From Convolutriloba macropyga (lineage: Eukaryota), in contig NC_134471.1 of the NCBI RefSeq assembly GCF_964194025.1, positions 5,704,001 to 5,768,000 of the forward strand: a DNA stretch of 64,000 bases, written 5' to 3'. A program made the translations under genes and the position numbers. Of this stretch, positions 1 through 60,925 are shown piece by piece. How positions within the stretch are numbered: the stretch's first letter is position 1; each line of letters opens with the position of its first letter. Under the pieces are notes generated by a model. The model was not told the origin of the DNA, did no database searches, and saw nothing but the letters and a program-made list of their open reading frames with translations.

Positions 1-1399
1 GGATCTGCTCCGTTGCGAAAAATTCTTATGTTAAATCAATATTATTTTCTTCAAATATGTTTCACGCGAGTAGATTTTTTCCCAAACATTCTTGCTAAGT
101 GCCAGCTACTGATTACGGCGGACGTTTTGTCATACTGCGGTGCAAAGATAGTAAAAATTTGAATGATTAAAAAACACGACCAAAAAAAGTTTATTTCTTT
201 AGTTCCAACGACGGCTCGAAATGCGTGTTTCTCCTGGAAGCTCATTTTTAAACAAGAAAAAAACTATCATGTTCTACTTCAAACTGACTTGAAGAGGAAA
301 ATGATTCAATCAATGTAAATCAATGTATCAATTTTATGTAAATCAATTTTTTGAATGAAAATTAGTCGATCTGTTTCTTTTTGCCCAATTTCAAAGATCA
401 GTAATTCAAAGTAAGCCAACCAAAAGTTTTAAGTCCTCCAATTTTTACTAAAACAAAGTAAAAAAAGAATTCGGGTTTTAATGTTGGCTTTGAGGTACTT
501 ATATTGCAGTACCGTGCTATGGATACGTAAACGACTGGGTTAATCGCGGCACCACATGTATAACTTCAGAGTTCAATCCCTAGTTCAATTCTTGATATAT
601 AGTTAAGTATCAATGAAGTTTCAATGCAAATATGAATTTACAAGTTCATAGTAAACAGCTCTAATAACTATGTGAGTTTGAAGGGGGGATAGATTAATTG
701 AAGTGACGATAAACGAAATAGCAAAAGTCAGAACAGGTTGATTAATTCTAAGTTAGTTGTAAATAAAGTAGATCTTAAGAGATGTTATATTGGATGTACC
801 TGAATTCCAAAATGTGCTAAACTAATAATTTTTAACTTAGAAAGTTCTTCTTTGAGAACTAGTCACAAAATATTCTAATTTAGAATTGTCATCTCAATAA
901 GAGCAAAGGGGAACGACACAAGCTTTCTTTTACTAATGGACTCGTGTCTCTCTAGTATCATAGTGGATGGAGATACACAATTGACAAAGTTTTCAATGTC
1001 AAAATAATGTTCTCAAAGTGGCGTGATGTTATCACGTCACGATAATATCAGTTTGAATTTGTGATCAAAAAATATTACTTGTTCAAATTGCTTAGTATTT
1101 TGTTCACGTGTTAAATGCGACATTGTCCGCATCAAGTTTGTGCTTCACGCACTATAACCTAATTCTCAAATTATCAGTAAGATTATTAAGTCACGTTACT
1201 GAGTGTAGCAGACTTCAGTACATCCCATATCGGTCTATAGGTATTGATTCAAACCGTCAATTTCTACAACAATAATTATATCTGTAACTAAATTTGCATT
1301 ATTAAGCGTTCAATGTATTTGAGTTTGAAAACTTTTTTATATCTTTTCTTGAGAGTTTATGCTTGACGAAGGGTGATGATGTCCTGAATTACATTGTCG

Positions 1400-2720
1400 T
1401 TCAAAAATGCAAGTCCTTTTTTGGGTTGGCTTTTTATAAGCAATTTGTATCTTTTCTTATGAAGATTGATAACTGCTAATACATCACTCGATATAGATTC
1501 AAATACAAAAAAAATATTAATTCTTTTGTATATAGTGACAAGCAAAAGTTTTGAATACACAAATTTAAAAAAGGCGCTTAAAACCATAAGGGTTATTGTG
1601 GCGGAAAAATTCCCCAAATAATGAATTCTGTTTCGTAATTCACCTTGAAGTGAAATAAATGCTAAATACGGATTATTTGTAAAGAGCTTTGAAGCGGTAT
1701 TTCATTGTTGATTGTTAAATTGTTTTTATGAAGAAGGGTTATAAGATTATGGATTTTACTTTTAGTCATGAGTTCGAAAAAAATGAAAATTTTTTTCTGT
1801 TCGAAATCTTCAAGAAATAAAATAACTTCTCACTTAAAATCAGAGCAATATATTTTGGCAATTTCTACGTTTGTTGTTAAAAATTACTTTTTAGGAAGAA
1901 CTATCCAAGCAATTTCACTATCAGTGGTCGATAAGCAATAATCCCTAAACAATTCACTATCAACACCACCGTGAAAAGATGCATTCAATCTGAAATTTAA
2001 ATAATTTAATCGAGTAATTCAATAAATTTTTATAGCGATTGGAGAAAATTAGACTGTAATTTCTTAATTGTTCTAATGGTGTATAAGAAAAACTCTAGGT
2101 CCATTAGTGCCATCTCTAAGATGCTGAAAAAGTATGTTATCATCACTAACCTTCGTTAGACCAAACCAAAAGAACAATTTCGTTTAGTTTGTTGTCCCTT
2201 GCAAATAAGATTACTTCAGGTTTTTTTTCATGGAAAAATATAGTTCAGTCACATGTTTCACGGAGCTATTAACGCAAATAACTTAAATCGGGCAACTTAA
2301 TGTAACATGATGAAAAGTTTTACGAAAGTTTCGAAAGAATTTGATATCTACTTTGTGAGTGAGCATTACTAAATAGAATAATTTAGTGGTTTAAATTTAA
2401 AATTATTGAGATGAAGAATGTCCTTAGTATGAAATAATTTCAGTATATCAAACAAATCGTATAAGTCAATCTGATGAAGATAGACCGCATTTTCATTACA
2501 ACCACTGTCTTGTAAGAATAAGATAATTTATTTTAATTCAAATGTCCTGCAGACTAAATATTGAAGCTAAATATTTGAGAAAAATGAAGCTTAAGTTAAT
2601 TGTGATTCATTGAAATCGGAAAGACCACAATAAGTTTTGAAACATTTGATGTCTACTCGAAGAGTATGCATTTGCGATGCATTACGTAACAAATATGATA
2701 ACTAAAGTAACTCTAGGTAC
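1400..2720 (+). mobile_element. Highly decayed non-LTR retrotransposon (LINE) RT relic
   Basis: Broken motifs appear in LINE ORF2 order: DWRK (~2040); VYKKNSRSISAISKMLKK (~2080-2135, cf. PIxKK..YRPISLLSxxSKxLEK); KVSKEFD (~2325, cf. DFSKAFD); YAFA (~2665, cf. YADD region). There are many stops and frameshifts, and the boundaries are approximate. Confidence 0.3.
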
Positions 2721-4089
2721 AGTTCAATGGAGGTAGGAGAAATTTTGGTTATGGTTTCACGAACGCCGGAGTATGAAGATGGAGAGGAGATTTTGAAGAT
2801 CTTTAACCACAACATTTATCTATTCCTGCGGTCAGAACTGCTGAACCCGAAAAACCAGATCTAATTTTTGATTGATTAACCTGGTGTGGATATGAAGTTG
2901 GTGCCTCAGATTATTTTTTGTTACAGAATTTTGGTGATTTGCTGTTCAAGCTGCTCTGAGCGGTTCTGAGATAAAATTTTGTTTAGTTGGTAAGTGAATG
3001 TAACAACCAGAAGAGCAAGGTTAGCTCTCATCTTATGAAAAAGTACTTGTATTGTTTGTCCATTTAATTTTTCATTACTTGGTAGATAAAATTTCTTTTG
3101 CAACAAGTAACCAGTGATGTTGAATCGTTTGATGTTGTGTTGTAGTTGGTAGATCAAACTGGATCGTAAATTGGAGGTCCATTAAAATTGGGGGCTTTTG
3201 CATGTCGTTCAGCTAGATGCTTTTTTCAGCAGTCTTGCAGGGGTAGATGTGTTTTGTAGGAGACTAACAATGTTTGTCTTGAAGAATGAGAAGTCGAAGT
3301 GTTGGCTAAAACGTTGGGTACGGAGGTCTTGGTCTTCGGTATATCTGTTTTTGGTGATTTTGCTGGGCTTAATGCTTCGCTAATGAATTCTTTGCGATAG
3401 TATCTGTGGTTTTATGTTTTTTTCAGGGCAAAGGTAAATGATAGCCAGAACTAATGGTTCAATTTGAATAGCTGAAACTGTGATTGTTGATAATAGTGTA
3501 GTAAAAGCTGCAATAAGATTGTCGATTGAACTGAGCAAGACTTCAGTCGATCAAGTGGTTGAATTTCAGATTGAGGTTTTGAAGATGCTAGGCCGGTGAA
3601 ATTGGGCCAACCACTTGAAGGTTCTGTCTGAATGCAGGGTACCAGCTTGTTAGTGATAGAAAGTAATTCCTAACACATCAAGCATTCTCCAACCTTTTTC
3701 TGTTCTCAGAATTGTTTGCAAACTTTCTCGTTTCCATTTTTTCTAATCTAAATTGAGTCAAAGACGATGATGAAGTCAGTCAGCTTATTCATGCATCCTA
3801 CAGATTGCTAAAATCCATGTTTCATTAATGATTAAATTTTAAACTGCACACGTAGGAACGATGTGATTATTTCTATTTTTCCTCGATTGTAATCAACTAT
3901 AAGTAAGTTAGGACAGTGTTACTTATACTCATTACTCATGTCGCGAAATTTTTGTGTTCTACACCAATCGTAAAATGGAAATTGAACAGGTCTTACTCCA
4001 AAATTATTTTTAGTGTTTTTAGAATTTGAAACTTGTTTGAGTCGTTCCTCACTTTCCCTATTTTTTTGTTTTCCAATATAGATCTAATA

Positions 4090-5125
4090 AATTATAGTTA
4101 CAACATATCAAATGCTGAGGCAAAGAGTGCGTAACCAAAACAGTTAGTTGCTTCTGTAAGTTTTTATATGATTTGATCTGATTAGTTATAGAATTATGTC
4201 TGTGAGTAGCTTATTAAGCCAAAATTTAGCATAGAAAATTCCTTATTGCTCAATTATGTATTGTATATCCCTGAAGCTTTCAACAATTTTAATGGATAAA
4301 AAATGCATGAGATGAATGAGTCGAGATGGATTTCTGGAGTTCTAGAAGTTTGGTCCTGATTTGTTTGAAAAAAATTTTTTTTTCTTTACTAACAATGTCA
4401 TGGTGAAGCCTTTGGCATCTCTTTCGCATTTTATATCATATCGCATTTTACTTTTTGTATGAGTAAAAAAAGCTCGAATGCTTGTATTTATGATACTCTT
4501 AATTTGTTGAATGTACATATGTGGTGTGAAGAGTTCGGTTCCTATATTTTTAGTTTTTTGTGGGGTTAGTTCAGTCCAACGACAATTTTTTTCAACATAT
4601 AGTTGAAATAAATATTCATCTTCATCAGAAGACTGTTGTTCTTTGGCTTCAGAGAAAGTTTGTCTTGACATAGGATCAACAGATTGTATTTCACCCTCGT
4701 AAAGAATAGGAATTTTATTGTAGTACTTATTCGGAATCTGTAGAGGTTAACGAAATTCAGGGCAGTCTTATAGGCAAGCAACAATGCCAGTTGTTAAGAG
4801 AAACATAGATGTGTTTTTAGTAAAGATATATCCATTTGAGCATGGATTTGCATGAGAAATCATTAAGGCAATGAGAATGGAGGAGCGTTCTGGCTTAAAA
4901 TCATTTCTTAATAATTTCAAAGCAGAGTTTTGTAGCTGCCGAAGATCATTAAATGGCGAATATTCAATCTTTGTTCCCAGATGTGCTTCGAAATAAAAAT
5001 TATCACAAACTTGAGTGTGTCTCGTATCAATTGTTTTGTTGTCAATGAAATATATTTTATGCTTTAAAAGAATAGTACCAGTATCAAATTGGTATTTTCG
5101 AAATGGTTCTCCAGTGAAGGGAAAG
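4090..5125 (-). pseudogene. Decayed viral/retrotransposon envelope-like glycoprotein (class III fusion, chuvirus G / gB-like env) fragment
   Basis: One frame from 5125 to 4342 has only two internal stops: ...FEAHLGTKIEYSPFNDLRQLQNSALKLLRNDFKPERSSILIALMISHANPCSNGYIFTKNTSMFLLTTGIVACL*DCPEFR*PLQIPNKYYNKIPILYEGEIQSVDPMSRQTFSEAKEQ...WTELTP. Further downstream is a hydrophobic TM-like tail, YIIEQ*GIFYAKFWLNKLLTDIIL*LIR, and after a frameshift LTEATNCFGYALFASAF. Confidence 0.6.
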
Positions 5126-5789
5126 TTGATCAGATGTAACTTGGGTCTGGAACGTCTGATCAGGGTTAATTTCTGTCATGAAAGTCTGATCAGATGAAAT
5201 TTTGGGTCTGGACCTCAAACTGGGAAGTGTATAAATAAAACAAGCGTCTACTGATCACTTTAATATTTTGAAGTTGCGCTCAGGTTGTAACATTCAATCT
5301 AGATCTTCGAAAAGCTCACTAATGATGCTTACCTCGATGGACCTTCAGGAACCTGTAGTAAAAATAAGGAACGGAACATGAGAACTACGACATCTAGAAA
5401 ATTTCCAATGGCAAAACTGCATCGACGCAGTTTTGCCATCGCAGAATCTAGATGTTGTACTTCTCGAATTCCTTTCCTTAGTGATGCTGCAGTTTCCTGA
5501 AGGTCTAACAAGGTAAAGTAAATTCTTGACTAAGAAGAGGAACAATGGGTACCTGGCTCTTCGAGTTTATTTTTGATTTCTTTGTTACGTTGCGCAGTCG
5601 CGGTTCTCAGCCTTAAAAAACAAAAAAACTTATAATGATATAGATTATGATAAACTGCACTTCTCAGATGAGCTCGCTCATTACGAGTTTGTTCGACAAT
5701 GAGGCGTTTTTTCTATAAGTAATCGAAAATTATTCTTTTTCACCAATTATTAAATAATAGAATCATTTTTTATCAAATTTTTGATCGCA

Positions 5790-7860
5790 TTGCCTATCGT
5801 ATATTGTCCATGAGTTTTTTAAACAACTCCAAGCTATCCGGTTAAACTCCTGACCAGCCGCTACTAAATACAATATGAATGGCTGAACTACCATAAAAAT
5901 TTTTGCATATCTATGGTGCTCTTATGTTCCAGTGGTCCTCGCATGCTTCAATGCACCGATTGTTTGTTTTACTGGTTTTTTGTGGTATGCTGATTTTTTT
6001 CTATTTTGATTATGGTCATGTGAAGATCAATCCGGTAGGCTAAATTTGCTCGTGGCATTAAAGTGGAGAAGAACAAAAAAAATATCAAAAACCAAAATCA
6101 AAAAAGGTAAACTTTTCATTTACTATCCCGTGATATAGTCTAATATGTTTTTTGGGGTTGTAATATCCGGGATTTAGGTTTTTTACCAAAGAAAAAAATG
6201 GCAAGAAACGCTGTGAATTACCACAAGTGATATTGTTTTGATAGCTACTTTTTTACCGCTTTTTACCACAAATTCGACATTATTTTTGACCAATATCTTG
6301 ACCTATTTTGAACATGGCAGCTCCTTTAAAGTTTGCGCTGTTTTAAAAAACACGCAGTTGATTCTAGAAAGAGATTTAAGCTGCCTTTGTTCAGCAAAGA
6401 CCTTATTGGCAATCACGCTCATCTCTGGACAAAATAGTCACAATCAGAAATAACGTTGTCATTGTCTAGTGCTGGTTGCTGTTTAAGGAAAAAATACATT
6501 CAAGTTTGCGGTGATTTGTTGTAGTGGTAGCTAGTAAAAACTCTTAACTCGCTATCTTGTTCCGCATGAGAAAATTAGCAGTTGTTTACATTATTAAAAG
6601 AAACTGTTTGTCAGATTTAAATTTCTTTTTTCATTTTTGATATCAAATAAACCCTTATCTTTTGAGCGGGATGAAATTCTGCCATTTCTTTTGTAAATTA
6701 CGCATCGATAAGAGAATTCACTATTTTGAAACAAATGTGGTCAGAACGTATTCTCTAGTACGCAGTTGACAACATTCTCAGCAAATTTAGAGGTTCAACA
6801 TATGATTTTTCGTTTTACCAATGTTGCCTATCGTATATTGTCCATCAGTTTTTTTTAAACAATTCCAAGCTATCCGGTTAAACTCCTGACCAGCCGCTAC
6901 TATGTACAATATTAATGGCTGAACTACCATAAAATTCTTGCATTTTATTGGTGCTCTTATGTTTCAGTGGTCCTCGATTTCTTCAATGCACCGATTGTTT
7001 GTTTTACCAATTTTTTGTGCTATGGTGACTTTTTTTCTATGTTGATAATATTCATGTGAAGGTCAATCCGGTAGAGGAGGCTAAATGTGCTCGTGACATT
7101 AAAGTGGAGAAGAACAAAATAAATATCAAAAACCAAAATCAAACTAAGTGAAATTCTCAATCGCCGTCCAGTGATGTAGACTAATACGTTATTTGAGGTT
7201 GCAATTTCCAGGATTTTTTAGCGGTGAACAAAAAGAACAAAATTGCTGCCAATTACCACAAGTCATTTTATTTTGATAGCTACTTTTTCACCACTATTGA
7301 CCACAAATTTAACAATACTTTTTTGACCAAAATCTTGAACCTATTTTGAACGTGGCAGCTTCTTTAAAGTGTGCGCTCGTTTTAAAAACAAGCACTTATT
7401 TCTAGAAACACATTTAGGCTGCCCTTGTTACGATAAAGAACTTATTGGCAATCACTCTCGTTTCTGGACAAAATAGTCACAAACAGACATAATTCGCCAT
7501 TGTCTATTCCTGGTTGCTGTTTAAGAAAAAGGTTAATTCGAGATTTGCGGTGATTAGTGGTAGCGGTAGCTGGTAAAAATTCTTAACTCACTATCTTGTT
7601 CCGCAGGGAGAAAATTAGCATTTGTTTGCGTTCTTACAAGAAACTGTTCGTCATATTTGATTTTCTTGTTTCATCTTTGATAACAAATAATCACTTCTCT
7701 TTTGAGCGGGATAAAATTCTGCCATTTTCTTTTGTAAAACACACGTTGATAAGAGAATTCTTTATTTTGAAAAATAAGAATGTGGTTTGAACGTATTCTA
7801 GAGTACGCAGTTACCAACATTCGCAGCAACTTTAGAGATTCAACTTATTACTTTTTTGGG
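5790..7860. repeat. Diverged tandem duplication of a ~1.03 kb unit
   Basis: ttgcctatcgtatattgtccat...ccaagctatccggttaaactcctgaccagccgctact starts at ~5790 and again at ~6824. The two units stay colinear throughout, with many substitutions. Confidence 0.9.
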
Positions 7861-10157: not shown

Positions 10158-10790
10158 TTAAGCATGGTTAGATGCCATTACAGAAGTCACCTAGAAATTT
10201 CTACTAAATACCTCGAACCGTTTCGCGGATCTCGATAAACGCCAGAAGTTCTCAGTGACTTCGAGCAGAGTCACTTAACCATTACTTAAGCATTGTTAGG
10301 TGCCCCTGCAGAAGTCACTTCGAAATTCTGACTAAATACCTCGAACCGCTTTACAGATCTCGATAAATGCCAGAAGTTCTCAGTGACTTCAAGCGGAGTC
10401 ACTTAACCATTACTTAAGTATGGTTAGGTGCCTCTGCAGAAGTCACTTCAAAATACTGACTAAATACCTCGAACCGCTTTACAGATCTCGATAAATGCCA
10501 GAAGTTCTCAGTGACTTCAAGCGGAGTCACTTAACCATTACTTAAGTATGGTTAGGTGCCTCTGCAGAAGTCACTTCAAAATACTGACTAAATACCTCGA
10601 ACCGTTTCGCGGATCTCGATAAACGCCAGAAGTTCTCAGTGACTTAAAGCAGAGTCACTTAACCATTATTTAAGCATGGTTAGGTCCCTCTGCAGAAGTC
10701 ACTTCGAAATTCTCACTAAACACCTCGAACCGCTTTGCGGATCTCGATAAATGCCAGAAGTTCTCTGTGACTTCAAGCAGAGTCTCGTAA
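10158..10790. repeat. 128-bp tandem repeat, ~5 copies
   Basis: cagaagtcac recurs at 10181, 10309, 10437, 10565 and 10693 (period 128). Each unit contains the inverted pair gaagtcac/gtgacttc. Confidence 0.95.
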
Positions 10791-11293
10791 TCTACAAAAA
10801 CTTACGTCAAGCACAATTTCCGCAACGCTTTTTCCCTAATTTAGCGATTTTTGACCTTTGACTTTAAATTCAAGGATAAAAATTGAAGTTGAGTTTTTCG
10901 GTTTTCAGTTACTCGTTTTTTTCTCTATATTTGGTCCTTTACAAAGAATACCTCCTTATACAAGCATTGATGTGGTCTTTCTCATCACAGTCCCCCCTAG
11001 CACAAAAATAAAGTCCTTCATATCGGTTAAATTTGTTAAGTGAAGGGGGGCTACGCGTTATGTAACCACTACGCTGGGGGAGGAGGGCTGTATTGGGAAA
11101 CACCCCCAGTAAAGAATCATCAATTTTGTATCAAAATTTGGGTCTTTCCCGTTATATCCCCCCTCCCGAGCTTAGTGGTCAGTTAACCTTTACCCCCCCC
11201 CCCCCCAATCATGCTAAATATACCATAATGGGGGGCTATAATAGGAAAGACCACTGTTATTTAAGAAGTTTATCTTGCAACGAATCTATAACA

Positions 11294-11546
11294 ATGATAT
11301 CATCTACATCTCGTCTGACGGTAAACTTCATAATTAATTTCGCTCTTGCAGTCATTTTCGCAGCAGCCACAGACTTGGCTCAGAATTTCAGTGAGAAGCG
11401 TGCGATTGTAAATGGGTACAATGCACCCAGTCGGCCCTTTTACGTGAGACTGTACATTGACGAGGGGGGAGAGGGATTAGTTCTTTGTGGGGGCTCAATC
11501 ATCTCACCCTATTATATTCTCACAGCGGCCCATTGCGTCAGTCGTG
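11294..11546 (+). CDS. S1A (chymotrypsin/trypsin-family) serine protease, exon 1
   Basis: MISSTSRLTVNFIINFALAVIFAAA (signal-peptide-like), EKRA|IVNG activation site, LCGGSII, and ILTAAHC with the catalytic His. Donor G|GTAAAT, phase 1. Confidence 0.93.
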
Positions 11547-11686
11547 GTAAATACTAATCTGGCTTCTTACAATTGGAATGCGTGTACATTTATAACAGAT
11601 ATTGAATCTACTCTGCCCCCCCCCCCACCCAGCTTAGTGGGCAAATACTTTTACGCCCCTAAGTGCACGTGCTGTTTTTTACATAG

Positions 11687-14600
11687 AATAATAATAAATT
11701 AGTTCTCGAGTTTATTCCATTGCTTGCATTTATAAAATTACAAAGAACAAAACAAAACCCGAAAGGACATCAAAAGGTCAATAGACCTGTCAAGTGGTGC
11801 TTTTTAATTCTTCTCAAAGTCTACTTATTTGTTAATTCAAACCCTCTCAAATCACATTTCATCCAGGTAATACCATTTTCCAATCAACCTTAAAAACTTC
11901 TAAGGAAAGGTTTAATAAGAAGACCAATTTTACAAAAAAAAATGCAGCTCGCTTTATTCCTTACCAAAAAAGGTTAACAAAAAATCTGTTAACTATAATA
12001 AATGATTCTCTAAAACAATGTAAAAAGTTTGTTAAATCCTGTGCATTAAATGAGCATAGTTTTGGAACAATACTTTCATCCATTTTAGTTAAAACATTAT
12101 ATAAGCGTCTTAATCTATTAAGGAGTGACTTGTTTTTTTGCTTCGTTAGCAAAAATTTTCTTTTGATTAGATGAGTTCTTTAATTTATTTGGATATTCTT
12201 TTCAATTAATTCAGGAAATGAGATATTTAAAAGTTTTACAGCAATTTTATCATTTCATATTTGTGTAACTCTTTAACAGAAAACAACTTGTGTTTACATC
12301 GCAGTTCGCCGATGCTTTGGAATCTCTTAGCTGAAAAAAAACAAACGAAAAACTTTGCTTTGCCGCCACCCTAATTTTTGAAAATCGCTTTCATTGGCCA
12401 CTCAAACAAAACCCCGTACTGTTATACTGGTTGAATGTAACCTTTTTATCATCGGACTAGTTTGTGTCTTTTGAAAAAGTTTTTTTACTGATAGATGGCC
12501 GCTGTTAATGAATTCATACGACTAACTATTTTCTCAATATGTGATTTGAAGCTCAGTTTACTATCTATGTAGACACCCAAATACTTAATTTGGTCGACAA
12601 ATTCGATGTTGAAATCATAAATTTTTATTTCAGTTGTCTCATTAGTAGCACCAAAACCTATAGCCTTGCATTTATCTCTATTTATTGCTAATTTATTTGA
12701 TTCCATCCAAACTGACACTTTTTCTACTGTATAATTAATTCCATCGTCCACCTTTCCGTAAATATTTGTATCATCAGCGAACATAGTTACATTACAGTTT
12801 GTACCAAAAGCCGGCAGATTGTTTACATAAATCAAGAACAGAAGTGGCCATAAAACAAAACCCTGCGGTACACCGCAAAAAATTTTTTTCAAAAGATGAT
12901 CGCTGCTTGCTAACTGAAACACATTGTTGTCTGTTGGTCAAATATGAATTAGGAATGTCTTAAATTTTTCCCCTCAAACCATACGCAAAACATTTTTGGA
13001 GCAAAATTTCATGACTCACAGTATCAAAAGCTTTCGTTAAATCAATAAAAACTCCATAGTAACTTTCTCTCGAACACAAAGAAATTCGTATTGTTTCAAC
13101 AACCTCCGACACAGCATCAATTGTGTTTTTCTTTGCCTGATATCCAAACTGTGTCTTGTTTATTACTGAGTACTTGGACAAAAAAAAGGGAATTTTCTGT
13201 AGAGATTTCTCAACAATTTTTGTAATAACTGGGAGCAGTGATATTAGTCTATAATTACCGAATTCGATTTCGTTGCCATTTTTGTACAGAAGTATAACTT
13301 TGGCAATTTTTAGAGTTCTAGGGAAATGGCCCTCATCAAAGCAACGATTAATTAATTTTGCCAATCTTTCACACACGCTTGGATTAATGAACATAATCAG
13401 TTGATTTGAAATGTTATACAAATCAGCGGAAGTTTTTTTGGGCATTTGCTTGATAAAATCGAGAACTTCTTTGGCTGTGACGTTAGTTAAGAACATGGAA
13501 TTTTCTAACTTTCTGACCCGGCTTAGATCTGACGGCAGATTACAACTTTCAGATAATTTCTTTCCTGTTTCAACAAAATATTTATTGATTTCATCAGCAT
13601 CTAGAATACCAATGTTTTTTTTTATTTTCGTTCCCTTAATATCGTCTATTATTGATAAAAACCGTTTATTTTTGTTTGCCTTTTCTTCAATTTTTTGTTC
13701 GTAAATTTCTATTTTTGCTTTTTCGTTAGGTTTTTTAAACGATTACGCAGCTTATTATCTTGTTTTCTATTTTCGACAGACTGTTCGTTCTTCAATGTCT
13801 GTTCGTTCTTCAAACTTTTTAAGACTGGGACTTTTCAACAGGTTATTCAACCAAGGCTTTTGAACCTGTTTGAATTTTTCGTTAGTGTGCTTTTTTAATT
13901 GTTGCAGGGGTACATAATGATTCAACGCCTGGTTTTTGACCCTCGTTGAATTCGTAAAACTTAAATCTAAATCAGAAGATAGATATAGTTTATTTTTTGT
14001 TCCCAGTTTTTTTTTGCAATACTGTAATTTAAATCTAACCTGAATCTTTTTAGGGGCCTAAAAAGAGATTTTTTGTTTTGTTTTTCCGGATCAACTCTTG
14101 TTTCCTTGCAGCTCAATTCTACTCCTTTGTGGTCAGAGATCATTGTATCCTTCACGTTTACGGAGGCTTCAAAATTCGCGAAAAGAATAACAATGCATGC
14201 TGCCGTACAAGAAGTGACTCTTATCGGTTCTGATCTATTCTTTATTTGCAGTCCTGCACAAAAGAAAAAATACCCAAAACCTTATAAATTTTGTTCGATT
14301 GTTCAATCACATTTAAAATGAATTCACCACAAAAAACTTGCAAACTCTCCGGTTTGATAGTGAACTTATTAAGTTGTTCTTGAAAAACGTTTATGTACTC
14401 ATCTATACCATAATTTGGAGTTTTAAAACCAACAGTCATCACTTTTTCATTTTGATATCCTAAAAACGCAACTGTCAACAATTGTACATGTTCTTTGTTT
14501 GTCTTCGCTTTAATTTGAACTTTGATGCCTTTCCTAAAAAAAATCCTTCACCTTCACCTCTTTTTTCTCTGTCACTCCTCAACAACTGGCCATATCCATT

Positions 14601-16007
14601 CAACTGGTAAGCATTTTGGAAAAAATACTGGTTGCACCAGGTTTCTCTTAATGCAATCACATCAGGTTTTGATTTCTCTTGGTTTATAAAGTGATCTAGC
14701 TCATTAATATCTCTATGGATTGATCTTAAATTTTGAAGTAATATTCTAAAAGTCATATATGTCCAAGAAGTATTCTGACAAAATTGCAGCCATAAACCAT
14801 TTTTTCTTTTTTGACTTTTTTCGAATCAGTTTTACCGGTTGTCGCGGAATCGCAGCGCAGAACAGAAAAACTCAAGCCTTTATTGAGTCAAATAATTTGT
14901 TTTTGAAATAAAGATTAAACAAGTTTAGAGGATTATAAAAGGATTTACAGGAGACGGAAGCCGCGGTAATCGCTGTACTTCAGACTAAATTATTTTCTGA
15001 TCCAAAGTGCTATCAGTGACAAAACAATATTTAAAGTTCACTCAGCTTGCAACAGGCCGCGGAAATCGAAGCGCCCGATGCAAGTTTTTGTTTATGAAGA
15101 AGTAAAAAGAAAAACAAATTCAAATAACATGGTTGAAACCGCGGAATGCCTGAAACCGCGGAAATCGCAGAACCTCCTGCAGTAAAATTTGAAAAAAATA
15201 ACAACCAAAAGCACGTAAGGCTTACACAGATAAAAATAAGCTAATTAAAAAAAATCAAGAAAATTAGTTAAATATTAACTTTTCTTTTTTATCCTTTTTT
15301 CATCTTTGAGAAGTAAGCTTAAATGAAACTTGTATCAAAAAACATAAATCATATTGCGCACATATTTTGTGTCTTCAATACTTTAGACGTTAACAAAAAG
15401 TTATAATGAGTTACTCTCAGTTCAAACTTTTTCCAGCACTTTAATTGGCTTTTCCAATTTCAAATATAGCTTTGTTTTCTTCAGGAGAGAATGATGTAAA
15501 TAGCCGATCAGCACGTCCATCATCAGTCAGTCAAAGTGGCTGCTTTGGTTTAAGGAAACCAGAAACTTGATCTTGGCTACGATTCTGCTCTCGCACAATT
15601 GGATTCTTTACATTTTCCAATTCAGTAACATCATTTATGTTACAAGTTTTTTCGCCCATCTCCTTGATCGCAGAATACGGACACCGTGCAGTTATTAGTA
15701 CTTGTTATGAGTCCTTTGCCTTCCGCGAGTTTCTTGATATAAGCATCCATTGCAGGTAATCCTTCTCGTGCGTAAATATTCTGTTGATTTATTTCGTTTT
15801 TTTTCCTTTGAGGTACCTTCGATTCGCATATATCTGGTTTTTATCACAAAAGTAAAACAACTTGACAATCACGGTAGCCATTTGACCTCTATCTTCCGCT
15901 CAACAACGTAGAATATGACACGCTTTGATTTTACTCGGTTCCAATTCATAGCGCAGAAATTTTTTAATGAAATAAACAATCCGTTCCAATAATGCACCGT
16001 TCCAATA
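11687..16007 (-). mobile_element. Near full-length decayed LINE (CR1/L2/Jockey-group) in protease intron 1
   Basis: APE endonuclease motifs: ILLQNLRSI, PDVIALRETW (14475-14756), SDH (~14130). RT motifs: NYRLISLLP, QFGY, FIDLTKAFDTV (12960-13496), GVPQG, MFADDT, KYLGVYID (12485-12922). The 3' end has the hairpin aggtc-tatt-gacct, AATAAA and a (TTA)n tail. Multiple frameshifts. Confidence 0.92.
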
Positions 16008-16585
16008 ATAGTAACGTGCTATTGTATATAACAACACATAAATTGTAATTGCGGGCATAAAGAACACGTATCTTTTCTGTTCGTCCCCCCCCCCGCCCGA
16101 GTGGATCCACAGTATTTGCATCCCTCAGACGCACTTGCCATATTTTTAGATAATGATTTACTATGTAATGACACGTGTTCTGTAACGGGAGGGGGCGCAT
16201 AACGTACTGGAGGGTACAAACGGAAACGAAACATAAACACAGGGGACCGAAAAAGAATAGATCCAGATATTAGATTAACACATGGGTCATAATTTGCAGG
16301 TGAGAGTTTCAGAAACTTTTCTTGGGCTAGGTGTTTACGGGCTATGTACAACAATGATTATCTTGAATCTTTGGGTCTTTCCCATTATAGCCCTATCTCC
16401 CAGTTTAATGGTCAGATGACCTATCCCCCCCTCCCCCGCATCATGGTAAATATACTATAAGGGGGATATAATTTCATTTGGGGGCGGGGGGCTAAATAAA
16501 AAAAACCCACGTCTCTCTCTCATATCCTCCCCCTTTACAGAGCCATTACACCATTACTATGGATAACAGAAAATATCCAATAACT

Positions 16586-16712
16586 GGGTCTTTCCCATTA
16601 TAGCCCCCATGAAATTATAGCCCCCCATTATGGTATAAATACCACGATTTGGGGGCTATAGGTTATCTGACCACTAAGCGGGGGGGGGGGGGGGCTATAA
16701 TGGGAAAGACAC
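16586..16712. mobile_element. MITE family A (TIR GGGTCTTTCCCATTATAGCCCC), 8-bp TSD
   Basis: TIRs at both ends and a perfect TSD caataact (16578-16585 / 16713-16720). Related copies lie near 9934, 11140, 16373, 17986, 18988, 22620, 29913, 31021, 40330 and 50259. Confidence 0.9.
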
Positions 16713-16749
16713 CAATAACTTTTCTCACATTTTTCACTGAACATTTCAG

Positions 16750-16892
16750 CTCAGTCAATAGAGGTGCAAGTGGGTGATTTTTCTGACCCAGAGAGTGAGA
16801 AGAGGTCAGTGTCTGGACAAGCTACAGTGCACCCTGATTATAACTGGATGGATGACAGTCAGGACATTGCCCTCATAAGACTGGAGCACAAG
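16750..16892 (+). CDS. Serine protease exon 2
   Basis: Acceptor tttcag| in phase 1 (G+CT = Ala). AQSIEVQVGD...VHPDYNWMDDSQDIALIRLEHK contains the catalytic Asp (DIAL). Donor AAG|GTACTT, phase 0. Confidence 0.92.
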
Positions 16893-17929
16893 GTACTTTA
16901 TAGCCAAGCGCAGAAGCTAAAACACCCGAGCGCAATTTATAAAATGTTAATAGTCTCCAGTACCAAAAAATGTCAAAAGTTCCTTTTAAATACCACCAGA
17001 ATTTCAATATTTCGAAGTGAATTCTGCTGAACCTTGCTTTAAACACGAATCTTGCAAGTTTGAAAGAGCCGAAATTTCCTAGAAGTCAACTTCTAGCTCT
17101 GTTTATAGGGACTTCTGGCAGTTTAACTTCTGGCACTGCAGACTATCGGCATTTGAAATCTTGCAGGAGCGTGTTTTAAGTTGCTGCTGTGCTTTAAATC
17201 AGTGCTTGGAGTAGTGAGAATTTCTGGCGCTTCTAATGATGAACAACCGCGTAGCCGTTAGAGACGTTCAGCTAGAATTATGAGGTTATTTCTGCAGAGT
17301 CACTTCAACTTGATTAATGACGAAATTTGGATCTATTCTGTTTCGGACCTCCAACTTTTTTTGTATCCCCCATAAAAGATGGGGGGGGAGACAGAAAAGA
17401 TCCCGAAATGTAATGAAAATCAATTTCTGGCTCTGCATATAGTGATTTCTGGCATTTCATCTTCTGGCACTGCAGACTTTTGACATCATATCTCGTGCAA
17501 TTCTTGTTGTTTCAAGCAAAGTTAGTTGACAATATAGAAGTCACTTCAATATTCTGGTTCCATCTCTAGCCGCTACCCTGTTATCGACAACCGCCTGAAA
17601 TTACTCAGTCATTTATCCTGAAGCAGAGTTGCGTGACGGGATCTATTCTATTATGCAGTATATGCAAAAACCGGATCTATTCTATTTTGCCCCCCCCCCC
17701 CCCCCCGCTTAGTGGGCATAAATCTTTTATGACCCCCAGGCGCACGTGCTATATTTTACATAGTAACGTGGGATCTACACTGTTTCGCCCCCCCCCCCCA
17801 GTGTTTTTTATGACCCCAGTTACAAATTTTATGTTGTTATATTGCACGTTACTATGTAAGAAAATAGCACGTGCGCCTGGGGGTCATAAAAATTTATGCT
17901 CACTAAGGTGGGGGGGGGCAAAACAGAAT

Positions 17930-20900
17930 AGATCCGTAACGTGCTATATAACAACATATAATTTGTAACTGGGGGTCAGAAAAAAGGGTCTTTCCCATTA
18001 TAGCTCCCCCATGAAATTATAGCCCCCCATTATGGTATAACTACCATGATTGGGGAGCTATAGCTTAGCTGACCACTAAGCTGGGGGGGGGGCTATAATG
18101 GAAAAAGGCCCTTTAAAAACACTGGGGGCGAAACAGAATAGATCCGTGTAACCTATACATGATGTTCAAGTTTTTCAAATTGCGAGTTCTGCGCAGTGTC
18201 AGATCCTAGAATGACATAGATTTTCCATAAATAGTGATGTATTTTAAAAATAGCAAATAACGTGTTACGTACATGTTACGTGACGTGTCTCTACAAAGGT
18301 CACTTTGAATCTCCCTCTACCATCATGAACTCCTGCGTCGTTCTAGATGATGCCAAATAACCTTTTCTAGAAGCCAGATAACCTACACATATTTTCCGTT
18401 TTTGACTGCGCAACTTGTCAATGCATGCCAATTCCAACCCCCAGGCCTACATTCTATATTTGCATTCAACGGCTTGCTAAATGATGAAACAAATAGTTTG
18501 AGCCGGGGCGCATAATATACTGGGAAGTCAATATATCAAACCAAAGCGAAGCGAAAAAGTTAGAAAAGTCAACAGGTATGAACGGTAAAACTTTAGACCT
18601 TTTCAGTTTCATATGGGACGCTAGGTATCGCTTCAGCGCAACAATTTGAACAAATTCTCTGAATACTTTTTAACAGCCGCGAAGCGATAGTGGCTATTAT
18701 TGGGGACTTCGTGGTTTTTACAATCAAATAATTGGATTGTATTGGTGCTCTGTCTTTTTTTTACAATTCAAAGAATTTGAATTGTATTGGGGCGCTGTCT
18801 TTTTACGACTCGAAGAGGAGTATTGGAGAAGTCTTTTTTAATCTCTTTTTTAATCAATTTTTTTGAAAAGATTTTGGTGCTGAAGAAAGGTGGAGAGCGG
18901 AGCCAAAAGAAAGTGGTTTTTGTCCATACCGCTAGATCCGTAACGTGCTATATGACATATAATTTGTAACTGGGGGTAAGAAAAAAGGGTCTTTCCCATT
19001 ATAGCTTCCCCATGAAATTATAGCCCCCCCATTATGGTATAACTACCATGATTGGGGGGCTATAGCTTATCTGACCACTAAGCTGGGGGGGGGGCTATAA
19101 TGGAAAAAGACACTTTAAAAACACTGGGGTTGAAACAGAATAGATCCGTGTAATCTATACATGTTCAAGTTTCTCAAATTGCGAGTTCTGCGCAGTGTCA
19201 GATCCTAGATTGACATAGATTTTCCATACATAGTGATGTATTTTAAAAATAGCAAATAACGTGTTAAGTACATGTTACGTGACGTGTCTCTACAAAGGTC
19301 ACTTTGAATCTCCCTCTACCATCATGAACTCCTGCGTCGTTCTAGATGATGCCAAATAACCTTTTCTAGAAGCCAGATAACATATTTTCCGTTTTTGACT
19401 GCGCAACTTGTCAATGCATGCCAATTCCAACCCCCAGGCCTACATTCTATATTTGCATTCAACGGCTTGCTAAATGATGAAACAAATAGTTTGAGCCGGG
19501 GCGCATAATATACTGGGAAGTCAATATATCAAACCAAAGCGAAGCGAAAAAAGTTAGAAAAGTCAACAGGTATGAACGGTAAAACTTTAGACCTTTTCAG
19601 TTTCATATGGGACGCTAGGTATCGCTTCAGCGCAACAATTTGAACAAATTCTCTGAATACTTTTTAACAGCCGCGAAGCGATAGTGGCTATTATTGGGGA
19701 TTTCGTGGTTTTTACAATCAAATAATTGGATTGTATTGGTGCTCTGTCTTTTTTTTACAATTCAAAGAATTTGAATTGTATTGGGGCGCTGTCTTTTTAC
19801 GACTCGAAGAGGAGTATTGGAGAAGTCTTTTTTAATCTCTTTTTTAATCAATTTTTTTGAAAAGATTTTGGTGCTGAAGAAAGGTGGAGAGCGGAGCCAA
19901 AAGAAAGTGGTTTTTGTCCATACCGCTGTTTTTGAGAGAGCGAGAAGCTGATGTGTGAAAAAACTTTCTCTAAGCAAGCGAAATTTTTTGTTCACGTGCG
20001 GCTTTTAAACACAGTTTTTTGCAACTTTTGATGATTATGAGGTTTGATTATGATATTGTATTAGTTTTATGCTTGTTGTGATATGAACTGAAGGTTTCAA
20101 GTAGTTAATTTGAGTTTATTGCTAATTTTGAGGTTTTTGATCATTTTTGCTGATTTTTAGACGAAATTTAATAATTTTTTGCCTGTTTTTTGTTTTACTG
20201 CTTAAAGTGGAATTCAAATAGAAGCTTGTTACTTAAGGAATTTTCAGATTCCAATTGATTAAAGTTTTGTTGGTATAAAATATGTTTTTCTAAGGAAAAC
20301 TGACAGAAAAATTGAGAAAGTTTAAACCATTTTTCTTTTTTTTTGCAGCTTTCGTTTTATTTAATCTTAGACAATTTTTTTAGCCTATCATTACTTGCCC
20401 ATTATTTTGCGAGATTTTCATAGCTCTGATTCGAAAGGAACTTTATTCGCTTTTATGTTTCCTTTTTATTGAAAAAACTCATTAAATTTTTCTAGTTCTT
20501 TTTTGTACAATTTGTTTTTTAATGCCGTTTCTAATGTTCCTTATTTTTTATGGCATTTGTGGAGGTTTAGGCTTCACAATAGTTGTTCTAGTTGTTTAGT
20601 CATAATTATGGGCAGTTTTCTCCTTCGAGTCGTTTCCGGAATTCTTCCTGCTATGTTTTTTTTCTAAGATCTGTTCACACATTTTCATGATTTTTGACGT
20701 CAAATTGGAGTAGTGATTCAGAAAGTGAACAGTAACCTATTATCAAACCCTAAAGAAGGTTCCCGGGCCATTGAGACTGGACGAGCCTAAAAATTGACAA
20801 ATTAAAAAAAATTGCTGATATTTGTGATATTAAAATGTTGGAAACCATTCCATTGCCATCAAACATTTTGCAGTAACCCATTACAAAAACCTATAGGAAA

Positions 20901-50832: not shown

Positions 50833-51227
50833 CTGGAATAACAACAAAACATTTATTGGTTCAACACTGAATTCCGAGTCAGAATCAAATAAACAACTAC
50901 TATAATTCACTACTCGGCAGTGTAAATATTTATTTGCCTATGAGTAAAAAATTAAAAACTATACTCTACTTGGAAACAAAAACAAATACATTGGCTTTCA
51001 AACTTTGCTTAAAAAAATCTGAAATTTAAAATATCCGCGTGGTTAATGTTATATGCTTGCAATTTATAAATCTCAACATTTTCCTAAATAAGTACAATCT
51101 AAGGTCTGTTTCCTAAAACTAATCTTGTAAAAATGTAATTGCACCCAGCTATTTTCATTCTCTTGTTATTCCTTCATGTCGTTTCGACCCTCAAAAATCT
51201 GATCAATTATTTTCATATCCGACCTAC

Positions 51228-51606
51228 CTAGTTGTCTTAGCCGATCTTTGAAGGTCGTTGAGTCAACGCTCTCAGCATGCGACAGAAAAGACGTAGATTT
51301 AGAAGTCGAAAGCGCGCCAGACGTATCCTGTCTAGAGGTCACGGGGGCAACTGAACTATTTTGACTTCCGCTATTTGACATCACAAGGTCATTCGGGTTC
51401 ATATTATTGTTCATAGCTTGTAAGGTCCTGTAAACTTTAATTGAGTCTGTTAGGAATTCGTCCAGGAAGAATTGCAGTTCGAAGTTTGTCAAGAAAGAAG
51501 AAAAAGTAGCAGGCTGAGCGAGTGTTAGTCCCGAATTGAGAAACGATCGTTGGATTAGTTCAATCGGCAGGTCAGCGCAAAGCATGAGCAGCAATGAATG
51601 TAACTC
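51228..51606 (-). CDS. CSTPP1: CSTPP1 homolog, coding exon 2
   Basis: Follows a 70-nt intron. ELHSLLLMLCADLPIELIQ...FSSFLTNFELQFFLDEFL...NPNDLVM (cf. EYHCLLQLLCPDFPLEL...FSDFLFAFQIQFYYSEFL). Donor G|GTAGGT, phase 1. Confidence 0.85.
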
Positions 51607-51676
51607 CTAAACGACAAAACTGTAGAATGCTATTTCAAAGTAAAATATCGAACCAATTCTTGATAAGACGGATTAC

Positions 51677-52003
51677 CTGCAGAGATAGCTGCTCAGTTGA
51701 CTGCAACAGATACTGGTAACTTTTCCTCACTCCCTTCAAAAATGAGAGTCGATTGTGTGGGGTTGCCACTATGAATGACACGCCTCGAAACATCACGTGA
51801 TTTTCAGTCAGAACAGAAGCAAAATAGTCTGCTAAAAATTTGGCACTTTCACTTTGTGACCGTGGCGTGTGTTCCTGTAGTGCCATTTGCGAAAGTGCAT
51901 CTTCTAGGTATGTTAATACGTGATGTCTGCGAAGATATGCTTCCGGGGATAATTTAGCTGTGGGAACAGTTGCACCCACAAGCGAAGGGTTCACCTCTCT
52001 CAT
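51677..52003 (-). CDS. CSTPP1: Centriolar satellite-associated tubulin polyglutamylase complex regulator 1 (C11orf49/UPF0705) homolog, coding exon 1
   Basis: YLRRHHVLTYLEDA, FLADYFASV, HVMFR and ATPHNRLSFL match the recalled human C11orf49 N-terminus (YLAQRHVLTYMEDA...HILFRE...ATPHNRVSFL). Donor CAG|GTAATC. Confidence 0.85.
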
Positions 52004-52164
52004 TTGAAATCTGAAAGTCATAAAAGGAACACAAGAGTCATTCACGTCACTAGCATAGTATTTGGTGGACAAAAATTATTTATATTCTGACCATATGCTC
52101 ACCATCTCACAAATATGCCAGATATCAACTTCCAAAAATTTCGCAATCATAAGAGGATTCGCTT

Positions 52165-55064: not shown

Positions 55065-55710
55065 TCACATATCACTTTCATTGTACACAGGCTTGATGCT
55101 GGTTCCTTTTCGAATCTGACCCCAGCCAATCAAACGGAAATTCTTCTCTATTCTTCTGCTCAAAGCAATTTTCTCGCCAATTTCTGTACAAACAGGTGTG
55201 GTCAGAACAAATTTAGCCAAATCAGCTTTAACTGCAACCACCCTCGCTTTAGCCGATAAAGAGCCAATATTCACCATCAACATTTCATTCTTGGTCAGTT
55301 TCTGAACCTTAGCTCCCTTTTCTTTCCCTTCAACTCGAACACCCAGTAACCTTCTGAGAAGGTAGAATGAAATTTCCAGTTCAATAAAGATATCGGGAAG
55401 GGTTCCAACAGCACCCAACACTTGACCGACCATTCTGTCTCCTCGACACAAGGTCGGGTCAATTTTGGTTCCCACTCCCAACAGACCTCCAGGCACTGCA
55501 TATTGCAAATCATTCTTCTCAGCGAAAAGCGATAAGACCAGAGTCTTGATAGGAGTGCACACCATCTGATTGTTCTCGCCTTTCCTCACAATTCCAGGTC
55601 GGATTTCGACTTCCTGGCCAACTTTGAGAACTCCTTGAAGAATGCTGCCACCGGCTACTCCTCCCTTGAGGTCGTCGACCTCTGAGCCCGGTTTGTTGAC
55701 GTCGAATGAT
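55065..55710 (-). CDS. EIF2S3: eIF2-gamma exon 4 (last)
   Basis: RSFDVNKPG...GGVAGGS...[18 protein letters not shown]. With the micro exon the CDS totals 1461 nt (486 aa). Confidence 0.97.
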
Positions 55711-56277
55711 CTAGAATAGAGCACTGCTCTACATTCCAAACTAGGATAAAAATATGTACTCCAGTAATGGTGATAAAAGACTTCAATTTAGAGAAGTGAG
55801 AGGTTCCGATAATTCGTCAGAAGATTATTACATCAGGGCACAAAAATACATTTAACTGATTAAAAGCAAATTTTATTGGGAAAAAAATGCTCAACTTAAA
55901 GCCATGATCTTTAGGACCCACGCCTATACTTTATACAGCAGGTGCAAGGACAATTAATGTCGAACTTGAAATCACGCAGTCTCCGACAGTATAGTTTCAA
56001 TCGGGTCTTTTATTCGTAGAAATTGTAAATGGACACCTGGAAATGGAAAAGAAATGGAGAAGCTGATCCCATAAATCCGTTTCAAGTCATGGTAAACCAC
56101 TTTGAGACTAAATCAATCTCTTCATGCATACTGTTGCTTTGCTTATTTTTTTTTTCAATTGCCAAAAATGATAATTTTTACGTACATAAACAAACTTTTC
56201 TGCAATAGTACACGCAGAAGTACTTTTTTTAGGATTAATTTACACAGTTAGTGACTACAATGGATTACATTACTGAC

Positions 56278-56748
56278 CTGATGATGATTAGCTTTGCAGG
56301 AAGGTTGAAAACTCTGGTCGGGACTGGAACTTTTTCACAGAGATACTGGCAAACTACATCTACATTGTACTTCAGCTGTGCTGAAATGGGAACAATGGGT
56401 GCTTCTGCAGCTACTGTACCTCTCACGAATTCCAAAATCTCTTGATACTGCTCTTTCGCAGCCGTATCCCTTACAAGATCAATTTTGTTCTGCAGAATTA
56501 TAATGTGTTTCAATTTCATAATTTCAATTGCCGCCAAATGCTCGGATGTTTGGGGTTGTGGACAAGGTTCGTTTCCTGCGATCAGGAGCAAGGCGGCGTC
56601 CATGATGGCCGCCCCGTTTAACATGGTTGCCATCAAAATGTCGTGACCAGGACAGTCCACAAATGACACATGTCGTACAAGTCTGTAATTGCCGCCACAG
56701 CCAACAGCTGCGCATGGGAAAACATCTCGCATGTCACTACTACATGAC
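56278..56748 (-). CDS. EIF2S3: eIF2-gamma exon 3
   Basis: [42 protein letters not shown]. Phase 2 at both ends. Confidence 0.97.
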
Positions 56749-57199
56749 CTGCAACACACAACGATTACATGCAAATATTTTTTAAAAAAAAAAACACTAA
56801 GGAAATGGAAAGGCAGATTGCTTTGCTCGATAATCAAACAAAATATTAAGTCAAAACTGCAGCTGATACAAAATTTCAAACCAACTGAAAGTTAACCCAG
56901 GCACATCTAAATTCAGTTTGTGTCTGAGTTTAATTCCATTGTCAGATTTATGATACTGTGACATAAAGAGAGAGTGTATGAATAAAAGTAGAGCAATTCC
57001 AGAAAATAGAGAATTAAGCAAATTACTCAGTGCGAATATTTCAACAATCTGAGTGCAAAAGTATCTCAACATTTCAAATTGGAAATGTATTGTTATCAGC
57101 ATAGGTTAGATTTTGTTCAATTAGACAAACAAATTTGCTTAAGAGTGTTCTTAAATCTACGGATTGTAATCTTAAAGCAATTCCATTAACACTAGAGAC

Positions 57200-57418
57200 G
57201 AAACAGCTAGTTATTATTACTATTATTGTTTTAAGCATCATTTAAAATCTCAACAGTGCAGGAAAATTAAAACAGATACGTTTTGAGTTTTTGCCTGAAT
57301 AAAATTTCAGATGGTATAAGTTTCAAATCAAAAGAGAGTTTATTCCACTCAACAGCGACGGCATGTGAGAACGAACGTCTTCCAAAACTAGAGCGAAATT
57401 TGGAAACAAGTAAATTGT
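57200..57418 (-). mobile_element. L2/CR1-type LINE 3' end, distal half
   Basis: YNLLVSKFRSSFGRRSFSHAVAVEWNKLSFDLKLIPSEILFRQKLKTYLF* is a typical L2-group ORF2 C-terminus. Confidence 0.8.
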
Positions 57419-60012: not shown

Positions 60013-60160
60013 AATATTGAGACCTTGTAACCATCGTGTTTCGTTTCATTAGTTCCGATAAATATAGTGGGAGTTTGCCAGGATGGTGTACAAAGCGATG
60101 CGCATACAATAAAATTTCGAACACAATGCGTTGCCTTATTTGCGACCAGTGTAGCTGGTA
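60011..60160 (-). mobile_element. L2/CR1-type LINE 3' end, proximal half
   Basis: QLHWSQIRQRIVFEILLYAHRFVHHPGKLPLYLSELMKRNTMVTRSQY (cf. LHWLPxxxRIxFKIL...PxYLS...RS). Confidence 0.8.
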
Positions 60161-60260
60161 ATTGAAACTGAATTTACTGACCTAAAAAACTTAATATGGA
60201 ATTTTTAAGTATGAGAAGACCAACGGTTCCCAAATGTCGAGTCAGTCATACTACACAAAC

Positions 60261-60588
60261 CTGTAACAATCGGGCGAAGGACACTTTCCGTCACATTTGT
60301 AAATCTTGGCATTTGCATATCCCAATTTGATTGTAATATTCCGGACCAGTTCATTTTTGAATCTGACAGTTTGAACACCTGATATTGACTTCACAAGGGT
60401 CGACTTCCCATGAGCCACGTGTCCAATTGTACCAATGTTGATGGTCGCCTGGCGACTAATGACCTCTGGGGTCAAAGGTGTCAGGGCATCAATGTCAAGC
60501 TTGCTCAGGTCTTGAACTGCTAAACCGGAGTCGACTGGACCCGCACTGGATTCACTGGCTTCTGATGGAAGAATGTTTTCCATAATTT
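60261..60588 (-). CDS. EIF2S3: Eukaryotic translation initiation factor 2 subunit gamma, exon 2
   Basis: [26 protein letters not shown] (P-loop) and [26 protein letters not shown]. Donor AG|GTTTGT, phase 2. Confidence 0.97.
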
Positions 60589-60925
60589 CTGGAAAGATGT
60601 TAGAGAACAATTAGATCAATTTTATCAGTCTTTTTAAAGTTTCTTAGCACTGCTACTGGCATCACTTGACTAGGACCATCGGACCTATTGATGACCTATC
60701 AAGTAAGTGGCGGTTCTGTGGGGCCTGGTTTGTACAGCAATGCTAACTTACTTGGAAACAAATTTACTAATAATATATTAGTGACAAAATCAGTGAGTAG
60801 TTGATTCTTCGCATGATCTAACGTTAAAATACGCAGTTCTCTAAAGGTCTGTAAGTCAACAGCAACAGCAGAAATTAACAGGAAAACTGGACCCTAATAG
60901 AAAAAATCAAAGAGAAAACTTGTAC

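Follow-up and report, generated by a model that had tools for sequence, protein, structure and literature searches.

A decayed env gene in Convolutriloba macropyga, very probably the 3' remnant of an old copy of a gene-rich LTR retrotransposon family

The 64,000 bp of Convolutriloba macropyga sequence analysed here (contig NC_134471.1, positions 5,704,001 to 5,768,000; hereafter the window) contain a broken minus-strand reading frame with motifs reminiscent of viral fusion glycoproteins, which raises the question of what kind of element left it there. The original prediction, made from the letters alone, described about 260 codons in one frame with two stops, and 258 codons are indeed counted from the start of homology at 5116 to a stop at 4342, with two stops inside. 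The 109 aa credited to the open reading frame track correspond to the ATG-started ORF, which is a 134-aa stop-to-stop ORF minus 25 residues. The predicted motif series and broken hydrophobic tail are present as well: TKIEY, ANPCSNGY, GIVACL*DCP, KYYNKIPI, VDPMSRQ and GIFYAKFWLNKLLTDIIL share the same minus-strand frame, and FGYALFASAF lies in a different one.

The env relic occupies positions 3900 to 5116 (minus strand, low end approximate) and covers the 3' half of the gene, starting near residue 471 of 899 and including the tail; the N-terminal half of Env is absent. An Env from elsewhere in the genome matches window positions 4240-5115 at 53% over its residues 471-768 (tblastn, E=1e-75), thus the homology is not due to chance. 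At the DNA level, a family copy matches 2888-5116 at 66% with gaps. Stops and frameshifts interrupt the relic. Compared with a genomic copy, 5116-4470 is free of indels (215 codons), two short compensated out-of-frame patches follow (approximately 4470-4422 and 4332-4308), and from about 4166 on the frame breaks down. Four conserved cysteine positions are altered. The relic itself is dead. Its 5' break is abutted by a 30-bp tandem repeat of 3.1 copies (5120-5212) that lies outside the element.

Downstream of env the relic continues, all on the minus strand, through the remains of ORF4 (2927-3696; three tblastn pieces at 44-51%, E 4e-21 to 6e-12), of two small ORFs that belong to a set of five paralogues, d (105 aa; 2378-2668, 48%, E=3e-25) and e (108 aa; 1707-1988, 47%, E=1e-24), and of ORF f, a 40-aa hydrophobic peptide (1525-1643, low end approximate) in which NYETEFIIWG is still readable. 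A polypurine tract position at 1223-1240, aligned with the tract of four copies, adjoins a complete 3' LTR of 723 bp with TG...TA ends (500-1222), which aligns end to end with the family LTRs at 73-77%. DNA similarity to family copies is found at 499-885, 928-2010, 2370-2656 and 2888-5116, at 66-77%. The fossil of an env-bearing LTR element that had been proposed is borne out by this continuation and by the gag-pol-env order of the family. The LTR and the four to five ORF relics downstream of env had been overlooked; of the statement that neither LTR nor pol in the window could be linked to the relic, only the part on pol stands. No gag, pol, ORFs a-c, antisense exons or 5' LTR of the parent family were found in the window and 20 kb of its left flank, where the sole pol match (24%, locus L040) belongs to another element. 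As the relic has no 5' LTR, its target duplication and LTR age are unreadable. The genome gave 619 candidate partners for its LTR, of which 40 were scored and none was close (best 71-79%), and none of three old LTR-like matches examined was accompanied by env. Window positions 500-5116 are very probably the dead 3' quarter of an element inserted long ago, a member of an env-bearing LTR retrotransposon family 18-19 kb in length, likely Ty3/gypsy errantiviruses.

A search of the genome with the 134-aa relic ORF gave 1384 candidates, and the 150 that were scored include at least 149 env matches besides the window itself, at 48-56% identity. About 45 of the 149 are in open frames of at least 896 aa (hand count). 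Intact copies downstream of gag-pol had been suggested as a check, and the gag-pol-env order is seen in all six of the regions that were studied over 30 kb, one with gag partly masked. The genes measure 458 codons for gag, 1898 for pol where it is unbroken (two of six regions), 899-902 for env and about 284 for ORF4, with a 4.5-kb gap separating pol from env. LTR pairs of 794-815 bp that are 99.5-99.9% identical delimit four of the six regions, giving an element length of 18.2-18.9 kb; one region has an internal duplication and one a masked stretch. All four copies with LTR pairs have a 4-bp target duplication, TG...TA ends, a primer site and a polypurine tract. The primer-site pattern has 26 matches in the genome versus none for a control, and two matching loci that were scanned were both called tRNA-Ile(AAT) at the match. 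Genes of the tRNA-Ile(AAT) type, a few of which were called with other anticodons, are densely arrayed at G000:C2:790904-855545. It is clear that the young copies have spread recently in this genome.

The window copy is far older. Measured against the reference copy along the 3' portion of env, identity is 92-98% for 14 young copies, 86-92% for 13 older ones and 69% for the relic. A tree built on 39 Env segments places the relic inside the family clade (support 100/99). Mismatches by codon position are 66/61/95, stops included, and this third-position excess, seen in env, ORF4, d and e with a rough omega of 0.3-0.5, together with the stops is consistent with an older lineage that was under selection and a copy that later decayed neutrally. 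It is unlikely, though conceivable, that the relic stems from a sister family, separate and now extinct, whose 5' half was different, rather than from an ancestor of today's family. Over env, its identity to each of the 13 older copies is much the same (62-68% with gaps), its K2P distance to the reference copy is 0.35-0.40, its end branch in the tree is long (0.62), and no close relative was seen among 40 scored DNA matches. Against this, gene order and LTR ends are the same as in the family, and its place in the tree is apart from the relatives at 44-54%. On the reading preferred here, an insertion from an older subfamily would have shed the 5' three quarters of its length and, free from selection, decayed. 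As the 5' half is missing, the family is the basis for supposing that the copy had gag, pol and ORFs a-c of its own.

The parent family is likely a Ty3/gypsy errantivirus, judging by its sequence matches. Pol has Pfam domains in the order protease (weak, E=0.1), Macro, RT, RNase H and integrase; the family matches include Retrotrans_gag, RT_RNaseH_2, Integrase_H2C2 and SH3_Tf2-1. A TTTAAAC slippery site is found just upstream of the gag stop. A BEL/Pao parent whose env came from a chuvirus, as in the mosquito elements described by Dezordi et al., would have a similar Pol domain order and env type, as far as these are set out in PMC13524379, and is very improbable. There is no BEL/Pao peptidase or BEL/Pao-type Gag or Pol match in Pfam at E up to 1, and among solved structures the best match of the RT is Ty3 (E=1e-33; foamy virus 1e-21). 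The target duplication is 4 bp, whereas that of BEL/Pao elements is usually 5 bp.

An insert in Pol between protease and RT matches human TARG1/OARD1 (C6orf130; PDB 4J5R) over 124 residues (E=1e-19). The likeness is in sequence, and the difference is that the domain here is embedded in Pol. It retains the LITK and CGLD motifs, which in TARG1 we take to contain the catalytic Lys84 and Asp125. Macro-domain proteins encoded as extra ORFs are described from fish epsilon-like ERVs (PMC4977317).

The identity of Env as a class III fusogen, of the kind represented by chuvirus G and herpesvirus gB, is supported by sequence profiles and modelling. With X at its stops, the relic frame matches Pfam PF24664 (Monjiviricetes_fusion) at E=3.7e-4, its 19 bits being below the Pfam cut-off of 27; the genomic Env reaches E=1e-36 against the same profile. 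A model built from 17 sequences has an overall pLDDT of 53 and pTM of 0.35, and is confident over much of residues 50-290. Its Foldseek matches are headed by herpesvirus gB in the PDB (best E=3.4e-9; baculovirus GP64 at rank 36) and by chuvirus-type and related glycoproteins in BFVD (best E=9e-25). The profile and structure comparisons that had been recommended therefore point the predicted way; since the overall model is weak and TM-scores are 0.2-0.3, the fold match is one of local similarity only. The top matches, chuvirus G (BFVD A0A0B5KJV8) and herpesvirus gB (PDB 6ESC, 5V2S), are aligned by the model over most of the ectodomain, but the family Env is only 9-16% identical to them, is borne on a retroelement, and has a 180-residue leader with two hydrophobic stretches. 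Hydrophobic segments are at residues 12-42, 137-184 and 762-794; in the family, env sits after pol, with the ectodomain between the N-terminal segments and the membrane anchor, and conserved cysteines are seen. Many unlabelled relatives (P0007-P0020, P0205-P0223) are found at 32-54% identity, and 2141 representatives at E up to 0.001 make up a large unlabelled fusogen clade.

With chuvirus-type glycoproteins as the best viral fold matches, and with family gag and pol missing from the window and its 20-kb left flank, the insertion of a piece of chuvirus glycoprotein mRNA or genome without a retroelement might be considered. This second suggestion of the original prediction, a free-standing viral element, is refuted by the LTR and the gene order: the relic runs into ORF4, d, e, f, polypurine tract and LTR in family order, and its identity is 12-16% to chuvirus G versus about 60% to genomic copies. 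Any remaining chance for it is negligible. Domestication of the env by the host, as a syncytin-like or receptor-blocking gene, could draw on the 215 indel-free codons and the third-position excess, and is just as remote given two stops within the indel-free stretch, later frameshifts, the missing N-terminal half, four changed conserved cysteines, and the same excess in ORF4, d and e, which shows that it dates from selection acting on the lineage of the element prior to insertion.

The env of the family, a Ty3/gypsy element on the preferred reading, is accompanied by further genes. Three ORFs of 103-109 aa (a, b, c) are upstream of env and two of 105-108 aa (d, e) are downstream of ORF4. They align to one another along their length, with mutual matches at E 1e-18 to 6e-7 within blocks and 3e-5 to 0.4 between blocks, and by this measure are five paralogous proteins of about 105 residues. 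ORFs a-b-c-env are packed stop to start, with an ATGA overlap, a 3-base gap and TAAATG (L042:1266-1271, 1578-1586, 1893-1898). In genomic copies ORF4 is 284 codons from stop to stop, without a Met, and has weak coiled-coil-type matches at its C-terminus.

Selection was assessed in 27 copies by comparing substitutions shared by at least three copies with private ones; the omega values are rough, being counted against one natural copy with multi-change codons ignored. Shared omega is 0.14, 0.09, 0.23, 0.07 and 0.14 for ORFs a to e, 0.19 for ORF4 and 0.13 for the Env ectodomain. Private omega, in contrast, is 0.6-0.85 in a-e and ORF4 (Fisher p 0.003 to 1e-6), and shifted frames give 0.6-2.6. The 180-residue Env leader showed no significant selection among family copies (omega 0.48, p=0.17). 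Of 14 candidate ORFs near the 3' end, one is clearly selected, one borderline (p=0.025) and 12 are not. The selected one is ORF f, hydrophobic and 40 aa long (shared omega 0.06, p=3.6e-4 in copies), likely a peptide with a single membrane span. At L042:7026-7190, corresponding to window positions of about 1300-1460, the borderline candidate is a possible extra exon or ORF without a start codon. Counting a-e, ORF4, f and the antisense gene described below, the substitution patterns indicate that at least eight accessory genes are under purifying selection in the family.

The model of ORF e has a pLDDT of 90 and a pTM of 0.83. For the small-ORF family there was nothing below E=0.16 in Pfam, nothing below E=0.049 in BFVD and no match in Atlas; in the PDB, the best Z of 6.3 (SAS-6 head, rmsd 3.2, 95 aligned) and the Z of 5.6-5.8 for KTSC are within the range of chance arrangements. 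Its 119 database matches look like the parent family's own copies. These null results establish neither a novel fold nor a function.

A six-frame scan of the parent family revealed a selected ORF antisense to the element, downstream of pol. It is likely exon 1 of a two-exon gene, which if spliced as predicted would encode about 200 aa (minus strand, L022:4204-4560 and 3802-4041), between pol and env and in the same slot in 24 other loci. In 21 of 23 rows a GTRAGT donor is present at one shared codon boundary, and the acceptors are rich in pyrimidines and in phase. The shared omega of the gene is about 0.2. In exon 1 the antisense omega of 0.21 is nearly equal to the 0.28 of the mirror sense frame, and the antisense strand was chosen on the basis of the open frame and the predicted splice sites. 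Identity in exon 1 ranges from 99% down to about 30-35% between copies, and protein identity is as low as about 35% between copies that agree at 96-98% in the pol end and the a-c block. The exons have no Pfam or PDB match and only five close database relatives. The stretch from pol to ORF a (L022:5300-7000 and equivalents) is also a variable slot, with five sequence types in 25 loci and no ORF common to the five. It is perhaps a swapped regulatory module.

From established Ty3/gypsy biology, the element would replicate by tRNA-Ile-primed reverse transcription, and Gag-Pol would be made through a -1 frameshift at TTTAAAC. Env may act as a gB-like trimeric fusogen by which particles pass between cells, the germ line likely among their targets. 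Less firmly, ORFs a-b-c-env might be translated by stop-restart coupling, the macrodomain might remove ADP-ribose marks, and the swapped antisense gene could be a counter-defence or self-recognition module. More speculatively, ORF4 might be expressed from a spliced message.

Complex retroviruses have genes additional to gag-pol-env. Among the copies seen, the relic may be the oldest of a 'complex' invertebrate retrovirus, a Ty3/gypsy element with an envelope, intercellular spread and its own counter-defence kit, a reading that falls a little short of probable. The kit would consist of an ADP-ribose eraser in Pol, a viroporin-like peptide, the spliced antisense gene and five proteins without a recognised fold that are translated jointly around env. 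The backbone would stay constant and the many antisense alleles would be exchanged on it, in an arms race against the host or sister elements. The accessory kit likely aids movement between cells and evasion of host control. It is also old, with env, ORF4, d, e and f together across about 0.35-0.40 substitutions per site.

The 'undescribed lineage' that had been suspected is so in part. The family and its accessory kit were not found described in a search of mainly open-access papers. On the other hand, gB-type env genes on Ty3/gypsy elements are already published, being widespread in many phyla according to Chary and Hayashi (eLife 2026, PMC13524379). Their HSV/gB-type 'ancient errantiviruses', as presented there, share with the family a Ty3/gypsy-type gag-pol-env organisation, a tRNA primer site, many near-identical copies, and a gB/chuvirus-like Env flanked by hydrophobic segments. 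The family here differs in its length of 18-19 kb, its 4.5 kb between pol and env, and its eight accessory genes. By its env alone it is another member of this published kind; the extras are unusual. The first screen outlined in that article was of regions up to 10 kb with, outside insects, at most 1 kb from pol to env, and later manual steps extended 3-5 kb. Term searches found neither 'macro' nor 'accessory' in its main text, and neither 'Acoel' nor 'Xenacoelomorpha' in its text and seven supplementary files, figures aside. The mosquito BEL/Pao elements with a Chuviridae-like glycoprotein (Dezordi et al. 2020, as summarised in PMC13524379) likewise combine a chuvirus-type class III env with an LTR retrotransposon. 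Their Pol lineage is different, and an accessory block was not seen reported in that summary. In bdelloid rotifers, LTR elements have extra ORFs beside gag-pol-env, which are ORF3 enzymes or env (PMC5408684); here, by contrast, a five-member paralogue family, a membrane peptide and a swapped, putatively spliced antisense gene stand alongside env.

The fossil is a product of ordinary decay, but it points to a family with recent activity and a gene content as rich as that of the complex vertebrate retroviruses, which belongs to another lineage and has a gB-type fusogen. Element surveys that are limited by length would tend to overlook such a family. Its proteins open to experiment are a domain resembling TARG1, a set of small proteins that fold well in the model, and the product of the hypervariable antisense gene.

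Elsewhere in the window there are a broken non-LTR retrotransposon with RT pieces (12485-14825, minus strand; Pfam RVT_1), one or more trypsin-like protease genes with exons amid repeats (11066-17030, plus strand; Pfam), and a gene for eIF2 gamma with few large exons (55065-60610, minus strand). Two ORFs of 146 aa at 51166-52075 (minus strand) resemble host gene exons, without a convincing match in Pfam. Repeats include a MITE-like inverted repeat (5329-5516), a 1.04-kb tandem duplication (5815-7732), an array of five 128-bp units (10158-10797) and a near-identical 1-kb duplication (17954-19847).
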